From a phage: a stretch of DNA of 34,536 bases. Positions 5,891 to 25,779 of this stretch are shown in pieces. The stretch lies in NCBI GenBank assembly GCA_012145005.1, contig GCA_012145005.1_3029.2. One strand, given 5' to 3'. Position 1 is the first letter of the stretch; each line of letters opens with the position of its first letter. The notes beneath the pieces are model-generated. The model ran no database searches, was not told the DNA's origin, and was given only the letters and a program-made list of their open reading frames with translations. The position numbers and the translations under genes were made by a program.

Positions 5891-7006
5891 ATGGAAAAAT
5901 TTATGGCAGAGTTTGGACAAGGATATGTCCAAACGCCATTTTTATCGGAAAGCAATTCAGTAAGATATAAAATAAGTATAGCGGGTTCTTGCCCGCTTTC
6001 TACCGCAGGACCATACGTTAAATTTCAAGATAATCCTGTAGGAAGTCAAACATTTAGCGCAGGTCTTCATTTAAGAGTTTTTGACCCTTCTACAGGAGCA
6101 TTAGTTGATAGTAAGTCATATGCTTTTTCGGCTTCAAATGATACTACATCAGCTGCTTTTGTTAGTTTCATGAACTCTTTGACGAATAATAGACTTGTTG
6201 CTATATTAACTAGCGGAAAGGTTAATTTTCCTCCTGAGGTAGTATCTTGGTTAAGAACAGCAGGAACGTCTGCTTTTCCATCTGACTCTGTATTGTCAAG
6301 ATTTGATGTATCATATGCTGCTTTTTACACTTCTTCTAAAAGAGCTATTGCATTAGAGCATGTTAAACTAAGTAATAGAAAAAGCACAGATGATTATCAA
6401 ACTATTTTAGATGTTGTATTTGACAGTTTAGAAGATGTTGGAGCTACCGGGTTTCCAAGAAGAACGTATGAAAGTGTTGAGCAATTTATGTCAGCCATTG
6501 GTGGAACTAATAACGAAATTGCACGTTTACCGACTTCATCCGCGATAAGTAAATTATCTGATTATAATTTAATTCCTGGCGATGTTCTTTATCTTAAAGC
6601 GCAGCTATATGCTGATGCCGATTTACTTGCGCTTGGAACTACAAATATATCTATCCGTTTTTATGATGAATCGAATGGATATATTTCTTCAACACATGCT
6701 GAGTTTACTGGACAAGCTGAGTCATGGGAATTAAAGGAAGATTATGTAGTTGTTCCTGAAAATGCAGTAGGATTTACGATATATGCACAAAGAACTGCAC
6801 AAGCAGGTCAAGGTGGCATGAGGAATTTAAGTTTTTCTGAAGTATCAAGAAATGGCGGAATTTCAAAACCTGCTGAATTTGGCGTCAATGGTATTCGCGT
6901 TAATTATATCTGCGAATCTGCTTCACCTCCAGATATAATGGTACTTCCTACACAAGCATCGTCTAAAACTGGTAAAGTGTTTGGACAAGAATTTAGAGAA
7001 GTTTAA
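5891..7006 (+). CDS. 35: long tail fibre hinge protein gp35 (371 aa)
   Basis: AAGAGG SD; N-terminus MEKFMAEFGQGYVQTPFLSESNSV; position after gene 34. Confidence 0.9.
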   Translation: MEKFMAEFGQGYVQTPFLSESNSVRYKISIAGSCPLSTAGPYVKFQDNPVGSQTFSAGLHLRVFDPSTGALVDSKSYAFSASNDTTSAAFVSFMNSLTNNRLVAILTSGKVNFPPEVVSWLRTAGTSAFPSDSVLSRFDVSYAAFYTSSKRAIALEHVKLSNRKSTDDYQTILDVVFDSLEDVGATGFPRRTYESVEQFMSAIGGTNNEIARLPTSSAISKLSDYNLIPGDVLYLKAQLYADADLLALGTTNISIRFYDESNGYISSTHAEFTGQAESWELKEDYVVVPENAVGFTIYAQRTAQAGQGGMRNLSFSEVSRNGGISKPAEFGVNGIRVNYICESASPPDIMVLPTQASSKTGKVFGQEFREV

Positions 7007-7011
7007 ATTGA

Positions 7012-7037
7012 GGGAGCCTTCGGGTTCCCTTTTTCTT
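7012..7037 (+). terminator. intrinsic terminator after gene 35
   Basis: 7-bp stem GGGAGCC/GGTTCCC with UUCG loop followed by TTTTTCTTT. Confidence 0.6.
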
Positions 7038-7733: not shown

Positions 7734-11859
<4,126 letters not shown>

Positions 11860-17343: not shown

Positions 17344-17424
17344 TCACTGGCGTCCGAAGACGCCTTTGGTTTTAAGATTGTTACGATAGAACTGCATCAC
17401 ATGTTCGTTATGGAAATTACTCAT
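17344..17424 (-). CDS. stp: Stp peptide (26 aa)
   Basis: ATG overlaps ndd stop (TAATG); translation [26 protein letters not shown] recognised as T4 Stp; not in ORF track. Confidence 0.7.
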
Positions 17425-17882
17425 TAATATGCCTGCAAAACAAATTTAAAGTTATCAGCCAACATACGGTTCATTTCTTCAAGTGTTTGATACTCAGAAT
17501 GATGATTACGAGTAAACGCTAAAGCTAACTGACCTTTTCCAAATCCCGTCGTCAGAGGTTTCATCTTAGAAGCAGGCAGATAAAATACTGTATATGGAAC
17601 ATTGTTATTTGCAATAGTACGTGCAAGCTGAGACCGACGTTGACGAATATGACTTAGAACTGCGCTGAATCCTTGCTTAGAACGCTGATTACCTACATAA
17701 AATCGTGCAGACACACATGGATTACTAAATGGACGACCATCTAATTTACTCACTAAAAAGTAAAATCCAGGTTTAGATAAAATGTCTTTGTGTGGAGTTC
17801 CCAAAAACCACTCACCGCCCTTGATTGTACCAATAACAGTAGCGCCTGCATTATTCAGATCAGTAACAGTCATATATTTCAT
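17424..17882 (-). CDS. ndd: nucleoid disruption protein Ndd (152 aa)
   Basis: Track ORF has a 16-codon read-through extension; ATG at 17882 follows GAGGAAATTA; [35 protein letters not shown]. Confidence 0.8.
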
Positions 17883-17942
17883 ATTAATTTCCTCTAAATT
17901 ATTTTCTACTCCAAGGCCGCATGAATACACGCGGCCATTAAA

Positions 17943-18602: not shown

Positions 18603-18630
18603 TCCGTAGTTGATAGGGTAATAGTACCAC
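18603..18630 (-). repeat. dispersed promoter-leader repeat, partial copy 4
   Basis: Minus strand GTGGTACTATTACCCTATCAACTACGGA. Confidence 0.4.
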
Positions 18631-18650
18631 GGAAGAACAGTCTTGTAAAC
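18621..18650 (-). promoter_or_regulatory. early promoter for ORF 18479..18592
   Basis: GTTTAC, 18-bp spacer, TGGTACTAT. Confidence 0.55.
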
Positions 18651-19090: not shown

Positions 19091-19120
19091 CCGTATCAGT
19101 TGATAGTTGTATATTACCAC
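19091..19120 (-). repeat. dispersed promoter-leader repeat, copy 2
   Basis: Minus strand GTGGTAATATACAACTATCAACTGATACGG. Confidence 0.6.
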
Positions 19121-19140
19121 AGTCCTTGTGGTATGTAAAC
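19111..19140 (-). promoter_or_regulatory. early promoter for ORF 18870..19076
   Basis: GTTTAC, 18-bp spacer, TGGTAATAT. Confidence 0.6.
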
Positions 19141-19156: not shown

Positions 19157-19714
19157 TTAAATGGAAAGATACCATCCGTTGTAGTTGCTTTTTCTTACAA
19201 CCTTACGAAGGTCTTCTCTGTCACCGATGAACTTCGGAGTGTACTGGATGACACCTGGATGAATTTCTTTAGTGTTGAATATAATTATACAGTCAGCGAC
19301 TTGATGATTTAGAATGGGCCCTAGATTTATTCCAGAACCATATGGATACTCTCCGCTGCATCCCGTTGTTACCGAAATCCAACGCGAGTCAGTTTGATGT
19401 GTCTTAACTTCTACACGAAGCCCGCAGTATCTTGGATGCGCCAATACATCCCATGCGTATGTATACGGGTCATTAACGTCCTCTTGGCCTTTGTTAACAT
19501 ACCCGCTTAGCCAATCTGCTACAAAAAACTCTGCGTACACCGCGATACGGCATCTTTCGATAACTTCTGCTTTATCCTGGTTCGGGTTTTGTTTTAAAGA
19601 GTATCTTGCTGTATCAGCAATTTTGACCTTCATTTCACTAGTCAAATCACTGTTCGATAGGGTAAATGTCGGAATCTGAAATAGTCTCTGTAAACCCGGA
19701 TTCGTTTTCTGCAT
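19157..19714 (-). CDS. denB: endonuclease IV DenB (185 aa)
   Basis: ATG at 19714 with AGGAAA SD; size and position between rIIB and ndd match T4 DenB. Confidence 0.75.
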   Translation of the reverse strand: MQKTNPGLQRLFQIPTFTLSNSDLTSEMKVKIADTARYSLKQNPNQDKAEVIERCRIAVYAEFFVADWLSGYVNKGQEDVNDPYTYAWDVLAHPRYCGLRVEVKTHQTDSRWISVTTGCSGEYPYGSGINLGPILNHQVADCIIIFNTKEIHPGVIQYTPKFIGDREDLRKVVRKSNYNGWYLSI

Positions 19715-19976
19715 TTAGACTTTCCTTTTTACCGCTGAGATAAGCGTTATATACTTTAAGAGTGCCGTAATAAATTCGGTCATTTTCATCTAAAGACTCA
19801 CGGTCAAGTTCATCGAGTTCCTTTTTATCCATGACTATAACATCATTGCAATAAAGAAACCCAAGTTTTTCGTGTCCAAACTCAAATTTATTACAGTACA
19901 CAATATTAGCGTGATGATTACCATGTAGAGAAATTTCTTTTATGTCGGAATCACCGATATTCATACAATAAATCAT
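19647..19976 (-). CDS. hypothetical protein (109 aa)
   Basis: ATG at 19976 with AAGGTGA SD; 3' end overlaps denB start by 68 nt out of frame. Confidence 0.5.
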   Translation of the reverse strand: MIYCMNIGDSDIKEISLHGNHHANIVYCNKFEFGHEKLGFLYCNDVIVMDKKELDELDRESLDENDRIYYGTLKVYNAYLSGKKESLNAENESGFTETISDSDIYPIEQ

Positions 19977-19993
19977 AATTCACCTTAAAACAA

Positions 19994-20009
19994 AAGGGCC
20001 GAAGCCCTT
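19994..20009 (-). terminator. UUCG-tetraloop hairpin after ORF 20013..20207, U-rich on both sides
   Basis: AAGGGC-UUCG-GCCCUU on minus transcript followed by UUUUGUUUU; plus strand also followed by TTATTTTATTT. Confidence 0.5.
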
Positions 20010-20012
20010 ATT

Positions 20013-20207
20013 TTATTTGAATTGTGCAATTCTTTTCTCTAGACACTCAGCATAAGATTTCATTGAGATGAACTGTGAAAGCAGCAGTTCTTGCTCAACT
20101 GCACTAACCGTTAGAAACTTTGCGCTTTCTAAAAATTTGCTCAGTGCATTAATTTTGAGCATTAATTGATCGTATTCTTCTTTTACTCGTGCTTGATAAC
20201 CTAACAT
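20013..20207 (-). CDS. hypothetical protein (64 aa), predicted helical
   Basis: ATG at 20207 with AAGGAAA SD; bracketed by two identical UUCG hairpins. Confidence 0.55.
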   Translation of the reverse strand: MLGYQARVKEEYDQLMLKINALSKFLESAKFLTVSAVEQELLLSQFISMKSYAECLEKRIAQFK

Positions 20208-20221
20208 AATTTTCCTTAGTT

Positions 20222-20237
20222 AAGGGCCGAAGCCCTT
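20222..20237 (-). other. UUCG-tetraloop hairpin between rIIB and ORF 20013..20207
   Basis: Same AAGGGC-UUCG-GCCCUU sequence as at 19994; overlaps rIIB stop; no U-run on the minus strand. Confidence 0.45.
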
Positions 20238-21174
20238 ATTTAAATTGTTCAGTAACGTCTTCAATTACTTCGTATTGGCAGGTACGCATTTTAGCGTCGT
20301 TGTAATCAATCGGAATTGATACTACATCACGAGGATGAACTTTAACTTTTACAACTCGGCTGGTTGAACCACCGAAGTGACGAATATAAGATTTAGAACA
20401 CACATGCAGACCACGAGAACAAGTTTGTGTATCATCGTCATTCACACGAGTACGCGGCATTTTAACTACTTTACCAGGACTGTTATCAAAGGTATTTGAG
20501 TGACAGTCAAAGTAATTGCTGCGAACTACTTTCCAAGCATAGAAGTAACCATCTTCTGTAATTTCAATATCGTTTGCTACCAAGAAATCAAAAAGTCGAG
20601 ATACCGCTTTCTGGCTTGGGTTTTCCAGCAGATTTTCCAAGAACGGAAAATAAAATTCAAAGTTTTCGCCTTTTTCCATCGAATCAAGAATACGATCAAC
20701 CAAACCAGACCGCAATTCAATATTTTGATAGAATAAGCTTCCACCTTCAATTCGAACATCGCCGGAAATATATTTTTCAACAGCGCGACGAACATTAATT
20801 TTTTGTGCCGCTTCTTCCAGCTTATCCGCTACAAGCAGATTGAGAATTTCCTGGAAGTTTGAATGAGTATTAGGCGTTGCATTATAAGTTACACCATCGA
20901 CAGTAATCGAAATGAATTTTTTAGATGCATTCCAAATAATGTCAGATTTAGTAACTGGAGCAATAACTGCATCGCTATTAACTTTAACTGTAATATCACC
21001 GCTAATAGTAACTTTAGGGCGTTTAGCTTCTTCAGCATTTTTCAAAACACGACGGATTGTATCAACCGATACATCTTGCCAATCAGCCAATTCCTGCTGA
21101 GTATAATTACCGCTTGAATACAGTTTAACAATTTCAGCTTGTTCGTTTTTGGTCAGGCATTTAATATTGTACAT
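20236..21174 (-). CDS. rIIB: rIIB protein (312 aa)
   Basis: Size, position adjacent to rIIA, N-terminus MYNIKCLTKNEQAEIVKLYSSGNYTQQELADWQDVSVDTIRRVLKN. Confidence 0.9.
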   Translation of the reverse strand: MYNIKCLTKNEQAEIVKLYSSGNYTQQELADWQDVSVDTIRRVLKNAEEAKRPKVTISGDITVKVNSDAVIAPVTKSDIIWNASKKFISITVDGVTYNATPNTHSNFQEILNLLVADKLEEAAQKINVRRAVEKYISGDVRIEGGSLFYQNIELRSGLVDRILDSMEKGENFEFYFPFLENLLENPSQKAVSRLFDFLVANDIEITEDGYFYAWKVVRSNYFDCHSNTFDNSPGKVVKMPRTRVNDDDTQTCSRGLHVCSKSYIRHFGGSTSRVVKVKVHPRDVVSIPIDYNDAKMRTCQYEVIEDVTEQFK

Positions 21175-21185
21175 AATTTTCCTTA

Positions 21186-23363
21186 TTAGGCCGCAAGGGC
21201 CTTCATAGTTTTAGCGATTTGGGAAACTTCATCATCACTTAAAGAGCTGCGATATCCGATGAAGTCGGAAACAATACGGAATTTCTTGGTAAACTCAGCA
21301 ACCATTTTATCACTGTTTTTTGAAGCATTATTTGATAATACATCAAAAAGATTAGTTACTGTCCAGATGTCATGACCGATGGTATCTTTTCCACCATTAA
21401 AATATACACCGCGCAATGAACTAACTATATTAGCGAGTCGTGTATATTCTTCAGAAACTTCATCTGTACTGAAGTACTTCATCATAAAATCTAGTTCAGG
21501 ATACTTGATAATTTTATCAATATATCGTTGAGCTGAACTTGAATAACCTACATACTTATCATAATCTACATCATCAAAAGCATCTACATATAAATCACGC
21601 AAAGCTTCAAAAATACATTGGCACTGACCGAGTTCTTTTACCTTTTTCTGTAAAAGCGGACGAATAACATAAAATTCATTAATGCCAATAAGATTAGCCA
21701 TACGAATCAAAATATTCATAGATGGATGACAAAGAGATGTAGTACCATCCATAGAGAAAATATCAGAACGATGCATATACGCTACATAACCAGTAATTTC
21801 ATCTGCTTCTGACGTAAGTGTAAATAGTTCCTCTTTTTCCCATCGCCCATCTTTAATTTCAAATTTAAATGCTGTAGCAGCTTTAGGACGAGGAGCTTTA
21901 CTTTTAACTACCTTTGGAATATAGCTTTTAACTAAAGTTTCAATTTCTGACAAATAATGAATGTTAACTTCATCACTTTCAAACATTGTCATAATATCAG
22001 GTAGTAAATCAATCTGCGATTCTACTTCCGGATTAATAAACAGAAGACGTTCATTGTGATGAATATTCAAAGTGTTATTAAATTCACTATCATCTAACGC
22101 GTGGGCTAATCCACGGACAATATTAACACGATTTTTAATATTATCAATAACGATATTAATTTTTGTTGTATTAATACCAAACAGACGATAACTTGATGCA
22201 ACGGCTGAAGTTTCATGACTTTGCTTAATGCGCTTCAGTCGAGGGTCAAGATTTACTTCATACACCACGCCTGCATTACATAACTTACTGTCAGGTTCAA
22301 ACATGCTCTGCATCTTTTTATATGACAGATTTTTAGTCGTGAATTTGACTGAATTACTAATCATATAATCTCGAGCAGAATATCCCATCTTCATCAATTC
22401 ACGATATGTGTGACGGGGAGATGTAGATTCTTTAAATCGTTTTACATCTTCATTAAATGCTTTCTCACTAAGCTCTTTAACTCGTTCAATAATATTTTTA
22501 CGAGTACGATCATCCAATGAAAGAGCTTCACGTGATGGAGCAATATCAAGTGAACCCATTGGAAACTTAATGTAATTCACTTCATTGCGAATGCTTAGCC
22601 AGTTACGGTCTCTAATAACACCATCGATAGGATAAACAATACCGCCATAGATAGCATATAATCCACCACGATCAGGCCAGTATCTTTCTGGATTTACACC
22701 GTAATAATCATCAAAATCCGGAAAATAATCAATTTCACGGTCAAGACCATTAATAATAGCCAAATCTTTGAACGGTCGCATGATATAAGAAACTTCATAA
22801 GCAAAGTTTCTAAAGTCTTTTTCTTCAACTGGAACTACGATTTCAATACCAGTTTTATCATCTGGACCCATTTCTTTCACGAATGTAGGTTTAATTTGTG
22901 GACCATCGCCATCCATGTAAGCTACATAACCACGAATTTCACCTTTATGATACGAAGTAATACTAAACGTATCAGTATAACTAAATGGAGATTTAGAACC
23001 TAAACCAAATCCGCCAATGAAATCGTTAGATTCAGCCTTAGATGAACTGAAGTATGAATTATACAGACCAGGAGAATTATCATCACCCTGAATATCAAAA
23101 TCACTCATACCCGGACCAAAATCTCGGCAAACAAATCGTGGATCTAAACGTCCAGGAACTTGTATGATAAATTTTTCAGGATTTCCATTGAGAGCATGGG
23201 CATCAATCATGTTAGTAATCAATTCACGGACTACTGCGCGAATCTTGTTTGTATACAAATCAGATGATAAGATTTTAAATACTTTAGGAGATGCTGTGAT
23301 GCTAAATGCTTTTGATTTAGAACCATTACCAAGAATTGTTTCTTTTTCAGTGGTGATAATCAT
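21186..23363 (-). CDS. rIIA: rIIA protein (725 aa)
   Basis: Size and position; N-terminal ATPase-like region (LITNMIDAH ... GLGSKS). Confidence 0.9.
21188..21202 (-). other. short GC hairpin between rIIA and rIIB
   Basis: AGGCC ... GGCCT inverted repeat overlapping the rIIA stop. Confidence 0.3.
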
Positions 23364-23602: not shown

Positions 23603-23632
23603 ATTATACCACATCCTTGTGGTAAAGTAAAC
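23603..23632 (-). promoter_or_regulatory. early promoter for rIIA.1-position ORF and rIIA
   Basis: GTTTAC overlapping the gene 39 stop, 18-bp spacer, TGGTATAAT. Confidence 0.6.
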
Positions 23633-25449
23633 TACTGGCTCATCCATTCTTTACGAAGGTCAGCATTATCTCCCATGAGCATTTCAAAAAGCTCTTTCCA
23701 ATTCTCAGGAAGTTTAACAACATCATATACTGGATTTTGAATCATCTCACGATATTCAGATTTTTCCAAAGAGCCAAGTCCTTTAATATAACGGATGCTA
23801 TGTTTAGGTAGAGCATCTTTGGCACTCTCATATTCAGCGACTGTATAAAACCATTCTTGTTTTTTACCGACCTGAGCGATGATTACAGGAGTTTTGACAA
23901 AGCGAATTCGTCCTTGCTCAAACAGTTCTGGCCAATTACTAAAAAATCCGAGCAGAGAAGGATAAATGCTTCCTAGACCATCATGGTCAGCATCAGTCAT
24001 AATAGCAATATTATGATAATTCAAGTTTTCGGCTTTTTCACCAAGAACTAATCCAGTGATTGCGCAAATATCAAACAGTTCTTTGTTTTTAAGCATATCA
24101 GCATATGACATACCCCAACTGTTGAGAACTTTACCACGCAATGGATAACCACCGTGAAGTTCTTTATCACGAACATCAATAAGATATCCGATAGCAGAAT
24201 CACCCTCAGTCAAGAAAAGAGTCGTGTCAGCATCTTTACCACAAAGATTCGCTTTAATGTGTTTATGAACCTTAGCTTTAGAAGCCTTTTTAGCTGCTTT
24301 AGTTTCTGCTGCTTTTTCTGCCGCCAATTTACGAGCCAAGGCAGCTTCAATAATTGGCATTAAAATTGCTTCATTGTTTAAAATGGCGCGCGAAATCTTT
24401 TTAGCATCAAGCTGAATATGACTACGAATTTCACCAAATGGAGAAGTCAAACGCTCTTTAGTTTGAGAATCAAATCGCATGTTTTTCATATCACGAACAA
24501 ACATGACGATAGTCAAACATTCTTTAACACGTGCTTTAGTTACATCAATTTTGAACTTACGTTTGATTTGTGGAATAAGGTCTTCACAAATATCATCCAT
24601 AACACAGTCAATGTGATGACCACCATTCTTAGTATGAATGTTATTAACGTATGTTAATTGACGAAAACCATCCGGTGAACGACCAACCGCAATAGAACAA
24701 TTTTCTTGTTCTTGAACAATAGCATGCTCATCATATTGGCGTGCATATTTCTTAAAATTACCCTGAACCTTTTTACCATTAAAGGTAAATTGAATATCAG
24801 GATAAACTACTGCAAGTGTCTGGAGACGATCCAGTGTAATGTCAAGATAAACCTGAGACAGCTCATTAGTTTCAAATGACATAAAATCAGGAATGAAAGT
24901 AACACGAGTTCCTTTCCATTTTCCAGGAATATCTTCCCATGATTTATTTTCCATGCCATTTGAACAACGAACTACAATATTATTTTGACCATCGCCAGTT
25001 TCACCAACAAACATTACAGAAAAAATGTTAGTTAAACTAGAACCAACACCGTTCATACCACCAGTGACGCGTTCTTTATCATCACCGAAGTTACCACCTG
25101 CTTTTGGAATAGTCCAGGCAGCAACAGGACCAGGAATTTCTTCGCCGGTAGGTGTTTTAACCATCGCTTGTGGAATACCGCGACCGTTATCTTCAACTGT
25201 TACTTGATTGTTTTTGATAGTAACATTAATTTTATTCGCGAATTTAAACTTAGTACGAATACCTTCATCTACTGAGTTATCGATAATTTCATCAATAAGC
25301 TTAACAAGACCAGGTACATACTGAACACTTTCCCATTTACCAAACAGAAAGCGCTCATGCATTTCATTAGCAGAAGAGCCAATATACATGCCGCTACGCT
25401 TTTTGATATGTTCAATATCGCTCAGAATTTTAATTTCATTCTTAATCAT
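23632..25449 (-). CDS. 39: DNA topoisomerase II large subunit gp39, uninterrupted form (605 aa)
   Basis: Track start is GTG at 25452; ATG at 25449 follows GAGGA; MIKNEIKILSDIEHIKKRSGMYIGS; GyrB-like ATPase and Toprim (EGDSA) in one reading frame. Confidence 0.9.
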   Translation of the reverse strand: MIKNEIKILSDIEHIKKRSGMYIGSSANEMHERFLFGKWESVQYVPGLVKLIDEIIDNSVDEGIRTKFKFANKINVTIKNNQVTVEDNGRGIPQAMVKTPTGEEIPGPVAAWTIPKAGGNFGDDKERVTGGMNGVGSSLTNIFSVMFVGETGDGQNNIVVRCSNGMENKSWEDIPGKWKGTRVTFIPDFMSFETNELSQVYLDITLDRLQTLAVVYPDIQFTFNGKKVQGNFKKYARQYDEHAIVQEQENCSIAVGRSPDGFRQLTYVNNIHTKNGGHHIDCVMDDICEDLIPQIKRKFKIDVTKARVKECLTIVMFVRDMKNMRFDSQTKERLTSPFGEIRSHIQLDAKKISRAILNNEAILMPIIEAALARKLAAEKAAETKAAKKASKAKVHKHIKANLCGKDADTTLFLTEGDSAIGYLIDVRDKELHGGYPLRGKVLNSWGMSYADMLKNKELFDICAITGLVLGEKAENLNYHNIAIMTDADHDGLGSIYPSLLGFFSNWPELFEQGRIRFVKTPVIIAQVGKKQEWFYTVAEYESAKDALPKHSIRYIKGLGSLEKSEYREMIQNPVYDVVKLPENWKELFEMLMGDNADLRKEWMSQ

Positions 25450-25466
25450 CACTTATCCTCGTTTGG

Positions 25467-25496: not shown

Positions 25497-25502
25497 AAGC
25501 TA

Positions 25503-25518
25503 AAGGCCCGAAGGCCTT
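25503..25518 (-). other. UUCG-tetraloop hairpin after the lipoprotein ORF
   Basis: AAGGCC-UUCG-GGCCUU directly after the stop at 25519; moderately U-rich downstream. Confidence 0.45.
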
Positions 25519-25779
25519 TTATTTAAAACGGATAGTCGAATCCTTGAAGAATAGACCAGAACATACGGTTCCTTCTACTTTCTGCCCGGTAGGTCCAATA
25601 GCACGAAATCCAGTATGTTGGAAATCATTTTCAGAGCAACCGAACCAATTGTATCCAGTGATTTCAATATTAGTAAACCCACTTGAAGACAAAACTTTGG
25701 TTGCATTATCAGCATCAGTACATCCTACTAAAGACACTGCTAATACTAATGCCGCGATAGAACGATTAACATATTTCAT
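25519..25779 (-). CDS. predicted lipoprotein (86 aa precursor)
   Basis: Track start is TTG at 25791; ATG at 25779 gives MKYVNRSIAALVLAVSLVGC with lipobox LVGC; mature part has three more Cys. Confidence 0.5.
   Translation of the reverse strand: MKYVNRSIAALVLAVSLVGCTDADNATKVLSSSGFTNIEITGYNWFGCSENDFQHTGFRAIGPTGQKVEGTVCSGLFFKDSTIRFK

Follow-up and report, generated by a model that had tools for sequence, protein, structure and literature searches.

Tuerk et al. reportedly described, in PNAS in 1988, intercistronic C(UUCG)G hairpins in the mRNA of phage T4. In bacteria, REP and BIME elements are repeated intergenic stem-loops that shield the mRNA upstream of them against 3' exonucleases and at which recombination can take place. 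In T4-like phages, a PeSL (promoter-early stem-loop) is made up of a strong early promoter and a stem-loop terminator, and PeSLs have been implicated in the gain and loss of ORFs, including ndd.4/.5 (PMC2839356, PMC4122927). T4 is reported to recombine at homologies of 2-10 bp (PMC9391042).

Here, we analyzed a pair of hairpins in the window, the whole 34,536-nt stretch of phage DNA under study (contig GCA_012145005.1_3029.2). A sequence-only reading of the window had pointed to a 64-aa ORF bracketed by two identical UUCG hairpins, and had proposed that the pair is either a cassette boundary, with insertion by recombination between hairpins, or the edges of an insulated transcript segment. We found that the two hairpins are of a kind known from T4, that the one following rIIB is conserved across T4-like lineages, and that the gene between them is missing from several lineages in which a single hairpin remains. 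Overall, the type of element is known already, and what its evolution adds is modest.

Genes and hairpins of the interval

The interval is 99.4-99.7% identical to that of wV7-like Tequatroviruses, and the window is that of a wV7-like Tequatrovirus. The gene order is rIIA, rIIB, the 64-aa ORF, a 109-aa ORF (ORF109), and denB, all on the minus strand, so that the name rIIB-denB given to the interval in the sequence-only reading is confirmed by the identities of the genes. The 64-aa ORF is T4 denB.1 (NP_049888). It matches the Pfam family PF21825 (crAss001_48-related protein) over residues 4-61 of 64, with 68.7 bits against a cut-off of 24.8, as well as PHROG 774 (E 2e-22), and tblastn detected it in 662 phage records. 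AlphaFold2 predicted a two-helix hairpin for the protein, with helices at residues 2-26 and 36-61 (pLDDT 94.7). A sequence search of the PDB returned no match, a Foldseek search with the model returned generic helical hairpins only (E above 0.5, none informative), and the searched literature mentions the gene in one genome report only. denB.1 is a real gene, conserved and syntenic.

The 16-mer AAGGGCCGAAGCCCTT, noted earlier at 19994 and 20222, is present at 19994-20009 and 20222-20237, and the two copies do bracket the minus-strand denB.1 and its Shine-Dalgarno sequence. Read directly, the exact repeat is 20 nt long, with 19994-20013 identical to 20222-20241. The copies had been called UUCG-tetraloop hairpins of the kind that terminates or stabilises phage transcripts, and both indeed read GGGC-UUCG-GCCC on the mRNA-sense (minus) strand (Table 1). 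The spacers that hold them are 28 nt (rIIB to denB.1) and 36 nt (denB.1 to ORF109) long. A scan of 19800-20400 against Rfam at E up to 1 gave a chance snoRNA match only, with 18.9 bits against a gathering score of 50.

Table 1 Features of the rIIB-denB interval and related elements in the window.
Feature	Position	Strand	Remarks
T4-type early promoter consensus match	23603..23631	-	Upstream of rIIA, nearest upstream; regex TTKACW-N16-18-TAYWAT
MotA-box/-10 candidate (middle promoter)	21304..21327	-	Within rIIA 3' end, before rIIB; regex consensus only
rIIB, 312 aa	20236..21174	-	Upstream cistron; ORF list and T4 annotation
rIIB stop codon UAA	20236-20238	-	Within 5' arm of upstream hairpin
Hairpin 1 (J1, upstream, after rIIB)	20221..20238	-	UAAGGGC-UUCG-GCCCUUA; predicted fold -10.9 kcal/mol (z = -1.9 against shuffles)
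Shine-Dalgarno sequence UAAGGA of denB.1	20213-20218	-	5 nt before AUG; direct sequence reading
denB.1, 64 aa	20013..20207	-	AUG at 20207-20205; two-helix hairpin protein (predicted)
Hairpin 2 (J2, after denB.1)	19994..20009	-	AAGGGC-UUCG-GCCCUU; starts 3 nt after denB.1 stop; predicted extended fold -15.9 kcal/mol (z = -2.8 against shuffles)
U-tract UUUUGUUUU	19987..19995	-	Directly 3' of hairpin 2 GC stem
ORF109 (DUF7418), downstream cistron	19647..19976	-	Pfam PF24193, E 6e-37; Shine-Dalgarno sequence AAGGUG at 19981-19986
denB (endonuclease IV), last gene of apparent unit	19157..19714	-	ORF list and T4 annotation
Early-type promoter matches	19111-19139, 18621-18649	-	After denB; consensus only
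C(UUCG)G hairpin	7010-7030	+	After tail-fibre gene 5891..7006
C(UUCG)G hairpin	11053-11068	+	After tail-fibre gene 7734..11048
C(UUCG)G hairpin	17349-17364	-	After ORF 17424..17930
C(UUCG)G hairpin	25502-25519	-	Upstream of 606-aa ORF

The window contains six GC-rich C(UUCG)G hairpins, two of them on the plus strand (loops near 7019 and 11059) and four on the minus strand (loops near 17358, 20003, 20231, and 25512). All are located at gene ends in the sense of the flanking genes, and they share a design that consists of a stop codon, an A-rich run, and AGGSC-UUCG-GSCCU. The hairpin upstream of the 606-aa ORF differs from the denB.1 pair by one swapped stem pair only. In 100 dinucleotide-preserving shuffles the expected count of AAGGGCCGAAGCCCTT was 0, a statistic that exaggerates the surprise of the repeat because the window has six such sense-strand hairpins of one design.

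Both denB.1 hairpins have a tetraloop with a C-G closing pair on a short GC-rich stem, and both lie between cistrons in the mRNA sense, as do the C(UUCG)G hairpins of T4. They are ordinary members of the T4 intercistronic CUUCGG family and differ from it in nothing essential; what is particular here is that two identical members bracket one gene, and what is added is that the member after rIIB is conserved, with covariation, across genera. The mechanistic novelty is small, as the UUCG hairpins that close T4 genes date back in the literature to 1988 and T4 itself has these two. The resemblance to REP and BIME elements is an analogy between repeated intergenic stem-loops; the sequence families are unrelated, and the elements flanking denB.1 are much smaller.

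Conservation of the hairpin after rIIB

We sampled the annotated loci of six genera, several Tequatroviruses, RB69, NHEP10, and 49 IMG/VR loci. The IMG/VR loci were found with an rIIB alignment, which was used for wide sampling; a locus search with the 64-aa denB.1 alone led to five loci only. The ORFs were classed by HMMs and the junction sequences were compared (Table 2). A C(UUCG)G hairpin immediately after rIIB was found to be nearly universal in the sampled enterobacterial T4-like loci, and it was kept whether denB.1, DUF7418, or denB came next. The loop was UUCG in about 40 of the 61 loci, always in the mRNA sense, and a few others had variant loops. The stems varied, with at least eight observed (GGGC, GGAGGC, GGGGC, GGGGAC, GGAGAC, GGAGCC, GGGCC, and GGGAC). 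Across 28 distinct loop-anchored sequences, five of the six stem pairs had double compensatory changes, the closing C-G pair was invariant, and 97% of cells were paired, a percentage that is inflated by the choice of these hairpins with a pairing rule. A hairpin of this kind is expected by chance fewer than 0.01 times per 80 nt, and it is the conserved position and loop, set against this rate, that carry the weight of the conservation evidence.

Table 2 Arrangements found downstream of rIIB.
Arrangement	Lineages	Remarks
Hairpin, denB.1, hairpin	Tequatrovirus	Identical stems
Hairpin, denB.1, hairpin	Winklervirus	Stems GGAGAC vs GGCC
Hairpin, denB.1, hairpin	Pectobacterium PM2	Stems GGGC vs GGCC; loops UCAG, GCAA
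Hairpin, denB.1, DUF7418 abutting, no second hairpin	Dhakavirus, Gaprivervirus, Kanagawavirus, Marfavirus	
denB.1, hairpin (downstream only)	Citrobacter Merlin/CF1 group	rIIB stop overlaps denB.1 start
Single hairpin + U-tract, then DUF7418, no denB.1	Mosigvirus (RB69, NHEP10) and three further clades	
rIIB, hairpin, denB	RB49-sized genomes	

The hairpin after denB.1 was present in some lineages only. The U-tract that can follow the rIIB hairpin was gained or lost between lineages while the hairpin itself persisted; in Dhakavirus and Gaprivervirus the hairpin has no U-tract, as is the case for hairpin 1 of the window. This variation suggests that the conserved role of the element may be to protect RNA 3' ends or to cause pausing, and not canonical termination. 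The hairpin after rIIB can thus be described as a deeply conserved, covarying RNA element, with or without a U-tract, whose core role is probably of this kind.

In the Merlin/CF1 group (L053-L055, about 885-906), the rIIB stop and the denB.1 start overlap in UAAUG and there is no hairpin between the two genes. The UUCG hairpin follows denB.1 instead, the mirror image of the arrangement in Dhakavirus and Kanagawavirus.

Identity of the two stems

Of the 12 distinct Tequatrovirus sequences that we sampled, 10 have the identical pair, modern T4 assemblies among them. In the other two (L020 and L024), the loop is UUUG at J1 only. As a general property of these hairpins, identity did not hold up. 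The stems differ in Winklervirus and PM2, four genera have the upstream hairpin only, and the Merlin group has the downstream one only. In the window, identity is confined to the hairpin plus 4 nt, and the similarity of the 40-nt flanks does not exceed that of shuffled sequences (upstream P=0.69, downstream P=0.13). A larger duplication spanning the gene ends, both of which read ..QFK-UAA, was considered and rejected, as the flanks are not significantly similar and each of the two protein families conserves the Q-F residues independently. Because only about ten stem variants occur across lineages, two hairpins of this design would be identical by chance in roughly 1 in 10 cases. The identity may be explained by both hairpins following the standard minimal design of the genome, and an old copying of the hairpin alone is possible.

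We also considered the reference T4 genome as a relative with non-identical hairpins and rejected it, as the 16-mer is complete at each of the two sites in two modern T4 sequences. In NC_000866 (locus L001), one G is missing from the hairpin between rIIB and denB.1 (AAGGCTTCGGCCCTT, 2456-2470) and one C from the hairpin after denB.1 (GGGCTTCGGCCTTTT, 2224-2240). T4T (HM137666) and the assembly OZ035787 have full stems at both sites, and D16359 lacks the G only. The deviations in NC_000866 are sequence errors, probably from old gel compressions in GC stems, and leave the reference T4 sequence wrong by one base in each hairpin.

Presence and absence of denB.1

The sequence-only reading had proposed a comparison of T-even genomes for relatives in which the ORF is absent and one hairpin is left. 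Such relatives were found in Mosigvirus (RB69, NHEP10) and at least three other clades, each of which lacks denB.1 and has a single hairpin. Compared with Tequatrovirus, Mosigvirus has exactly one unit of hairpin plus denB.1 fewer. The 5' side of its junction is the end of rIIB, and the 3' side has the U-tract, Shine-Dalgarno sequence, and AUGAUU flank as in the Tequatrovirus J2 junction. In a neighbor-joining tree of the rIIB C-terminal domain, the denB.1-less Mosigvirus is sister to Tequatrovirus and is the only part of a larger clade without denB.1.

The idea that a cassette had been inserted between the hairpins was not borne out. Because at least eight lineages have denB.1 at the same position, the divergence of the gene tracks that of rIIB (Spearman 0.68), and Mosigvirus is nested among phages that carry the gene, descent with repeated loss is the parsimonious reading, and denB.1 looks old and mostly vertically inherited. 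What stands of the proposed cassette boundary is the hairpin-associated loss of the gene in sister lineages. Within Tequatrovirus, rIIB and denB.1 occur near one to one (498 and 497 records, respectively), which suggests that selection keeps denB.1 in this genus.

The hairpin pair forms a direct repeat of 16-20 bp, 228 bp apart, around denB.1. Recombination between the repeats is a likely route by which denB.1 would have been lost in Mosigvirus, and perhaps in other clades, with one hairpin kept. We searched for a hairpin-by-hairpin deletion junction in Tequatrovirus and found none among the 15 best matches, all of which were two pieces about 325 bp apart; the support for this putative route comes from the pattern between genera. 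The route resembles the short-homology deletions of T4, including those in rII (Kumagai 1993, Wu 1991, Wu 2021, in PMC9391042), and next to the 2-10 bp homologies reported there, a repeat of 16-20 bp should be the better substrate. It differs from them in that the deletion of denB.1 is seen only between genera, with none in Tequatrovirus among the best matches.

Deletions at shorter repeats have occurred next door. ORF109 is internally deleted in T4, T2, Shfl2, and ESh32. In T4 and T2, an in-frame deletion of about 200 nt leaves the 37-aa "ORF37" of D16359, and a further deletion is present in Shfl2 and ESh32. Short direct repeats, TAAAAGAAA/TAAAAAGGAAA and TGATT, are found at the junctions, and the T4 and Shfl2 deletions end in repeats of 5-10 nt. 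The retention of denB.1 despite a perfect flanking repeat of 16-20 bp argues that the helical-hairpin protein is under selection, because shorter repeats have deleted the neighbouring ORF in the same interval.

The locus shares several properties with PeSLs (Arbiol et al. 2010, PMC2839356; Comeau et al. 2014, PMC4122927). The hairpins are intergenic stem-loops, predicted to be stable, that have the look of terminators or attenuators. They occur repeatedly in a plastic region, the presence or absence of a small ORF is tied to them, and direct repeats flank that ORF. Indels between related phages, which are a mark of PeSLs, are seen here as the missing denB.1 beside one remaining hairpin in Mosigvirus and three clades. 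Membership was rejected, as a PeSL has a sigma70-like -35/-10 early promoter within its motif of about 50 bp and the consensus scans found none here. The 28- and 36-nt spacers leave no room for a promoter, and denB.1, the gene between the hairpins, is no ORFan but an old, conserved gene. That denB.1 was apparently lost several times at precisely this hairpin supports the view that gene loss in T4-like phages is guided by terminator stem-loops, including those that lack the PeSL promoter.

One pair of genera, a modest exception to the parallel divergence of denB.1 and rIIB, shows strongly uneven divergence along the locus. Between Kanagawavirus (L010) and Marfavirus (L012), the denB.1 proteins are 85% identical and the rIIB C-termini 69%, and DUF7418 and denB are far more diverged (30-55% nucleotide identity). 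A recent lateral transfer of denB.1 between these genera was considered and rejected, as the nucleotide profile has no step at the hairpin (about 0.8 vs 0.7).

Predicted transcription of the interval

We scanned the sense strand for intrinsic terminators, defined as a GC-rich stem-loop with a U-tract immediately 3' (at least 5 U in 8 nt). Hairpin 2 passes the scan and resembles intrinsic terminators in its GC stem, tetraloop, and UUUUGUUUU. Hairpin 1 differs from them in having no U-tract; it is followed by ACUAAGGA and fails the minus-strand scan. In ARNOLD runs of other annotators both hairpins were called terminators, and MK373786 annotates hairpin 2 as a terminator.

Promoters were searched for with simple consensus patterns, which a weak or atypical promoter could escape, and on the minus strand neither a generic sigma70 scan nor the T4/PST early consensus found a site between about 19140 and 23600. 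A generic promoter scan of the minus strand at 19970-20260 found no promoter-like site, and the T4/PST PeSL consensus TTTACW-N17-TAYWAT had no match at the hairpins, with the nearest matches at 23603 and 19139. As they have no promoter consensus of their own, denB.1, ORF109, and denB appear to depend on read-through. The other proposal of the sequence-only reading, that of an insulated transcript segment, holds in the sense that denB.1 appears to lie in a hairpin-delimited segment of a longer read-through transcript, with no promoter consensus between the hairpins. rIIB itself has been described as being under middle promoter control (PMC9697503).

On this layout, transcription would start from two promoters, the early one of rIIA and the middle one of rIIB, and continue through rIIB, denB.1, the DUF7418 ORF, and denB. 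Hairpin 1 would fold once the rIIB stop codon has been transcribed. With no U-tract, it is most likely a weak pause site or attenuator, and most likely also a barrier to 3' exonucleases for transcripts that end after rIIB. Hairpin 2 with its U-tract would act as a compact intrinsic terminator or attenuator and end most rIIA-rIIB-denB.1 transcripts, and it would have to leak to allow expression of the DUF7418 ORF and denB, neither of which is preceded by its own promoter consensus. Judged from the sequence, the same should apply to both hairpins flanking denB.1, which, unlike full terminators, would need to be leaky because the genes downstream of each lack a promoter consensus. Both would then be attenuators rather than full stops. 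A search of the literature found no 3'-end mapping at these T4 sites.

Alternative explanations

We consider it likely that both hairpins act at the RNA level as members of the T4-type intercistronic C(UUCG)G family. It is very improbable that the near-palindromic 16-mer is instead a DNA-level site, bound by a protein, extruded as a cruciform, or cut by a nuclease, with RNA folding incidental. The sequence is an inverted repeat, and on the plus strand T-rich runs also follow both copies of AAGGGCCGAAGCCCTT. However, UUCG is always on the transcribed sense strand, both in six of six window hairpins and in the UUCG loops of the related loci, and the stems change freely while pairing is kept, which is the signature of an RNA or single-strand structure and not that of a DNA site recognised by sequence. 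A recent history shared by the two hairpins, in which one Tequatrovirus copy was duplicated from the other or homogenised with it by gene conversion, would account for the 20-nt identity, which extends 4 nt beyond the stem. The ..QFK-UAA ending common to rIIB and denB.1 occurs in Tequatrovirus only, and the differing stems of the other two-hairpin genera indicate that function alone does not force identity. We nevertheless find this history doubtful. The flanks have no significant similarity, and the Q-F codons are family-conserved in each gene independently. About ten stem variants are in use, AAGGGC recurs independently in PM2, and a one-pair variant is present at 25502, so that a chance match between two such hairpins is not negligible. 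The two copies also vary independently, as seen in L020 and L024, where UUUG is at J1 only.

A role of the hairpins primarily as recombination boundaries, in a promoter-less version of PeSLs and with hairpin plus denB.1 as a mobile cassette that moves by inter-hairpin recombination, possibly through mini-circles, appears unlikely. The distribution of denB.1 is patchy, its presence or absence always maps beside a hairpin, and all four configurations are seen (hairpin-gene-hairpin, hairpin-gene, gene-hairpin, and hairpin alone). The region is a hyperplastic part of T4-like genomes, PeSL exchange has been proposed for ndd.4/.5 about 1 kb away (PMC4122927), and tandem PeSLs form mini-circles in RB49 and phi1 (PMC2839356). 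The closer similarity of denB.1 than of the rIIB C-termini between Kanagawavirus and Marfavirus would also fit. Against this, the promoter half that defines a PeSL is missing, denB.1 divergence follows rIIB divergence overall, and even the Kanagawavirus/Marfavirus comparison has no sharp identity step at the hairpin. Essentially every Tequatrovirus record has denB.1 despite the perfect flanking repeats, and its occupation of the same slot in at least eight lineages is explained more easily by descent and loss. We put forward, as a tentative possibility, a further reading in which promoter-less UUCG terminator hairpins double as gene-cassette boundaries across Tevenvirinae, with repeated precise excision of denB.1 that leaves one functional hairpin. 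Such excision, by recombination or template switching, would have taken place in Mosigvirus and in three clades (L044, L045, and L046), with further cases possible. If this were true, transcript punctuation would shape which small genes are gained and lost, and the PeSL idea would extend to promoter-less stem-loops and to the classical T-even phages. Action of the hairpins at the RNA level is the reading that we prefer.

Other features of the region

ORF109 is intact in the window and contains an HGNHH motif. Some records label it "endonuclease", with no visible basis. Its 3' end and the 185-aa denB ORF, which are in different frames, share the initial 68 nt of the latter (19647-19714, minus strand). 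RB69 and R5505 annotate denB as a 158-aa protein that starts 3' of the DUF7418 ORF, and the DUF7418 C-terminus ..SDIYP(I/V)E is conserved; on these grounds, the true start of denB may lie 27 codons downstream of the one annotated in T4 style.

A further GC hairpin, AGGCCCUUGCGGCCU in the mRNA sense, is located at 21188-21202, at the extreme end of rIIA and just before the rIIB start. In T4, genes 39 and 60 encode a topoisomerase subunit that is split by a 50-nt bypass. Where T4 has these two genes, the window has a single 606-aa ORF (23632-25452, minus strand), which suggests that this phage carries the unsplit form of gene 39/60.
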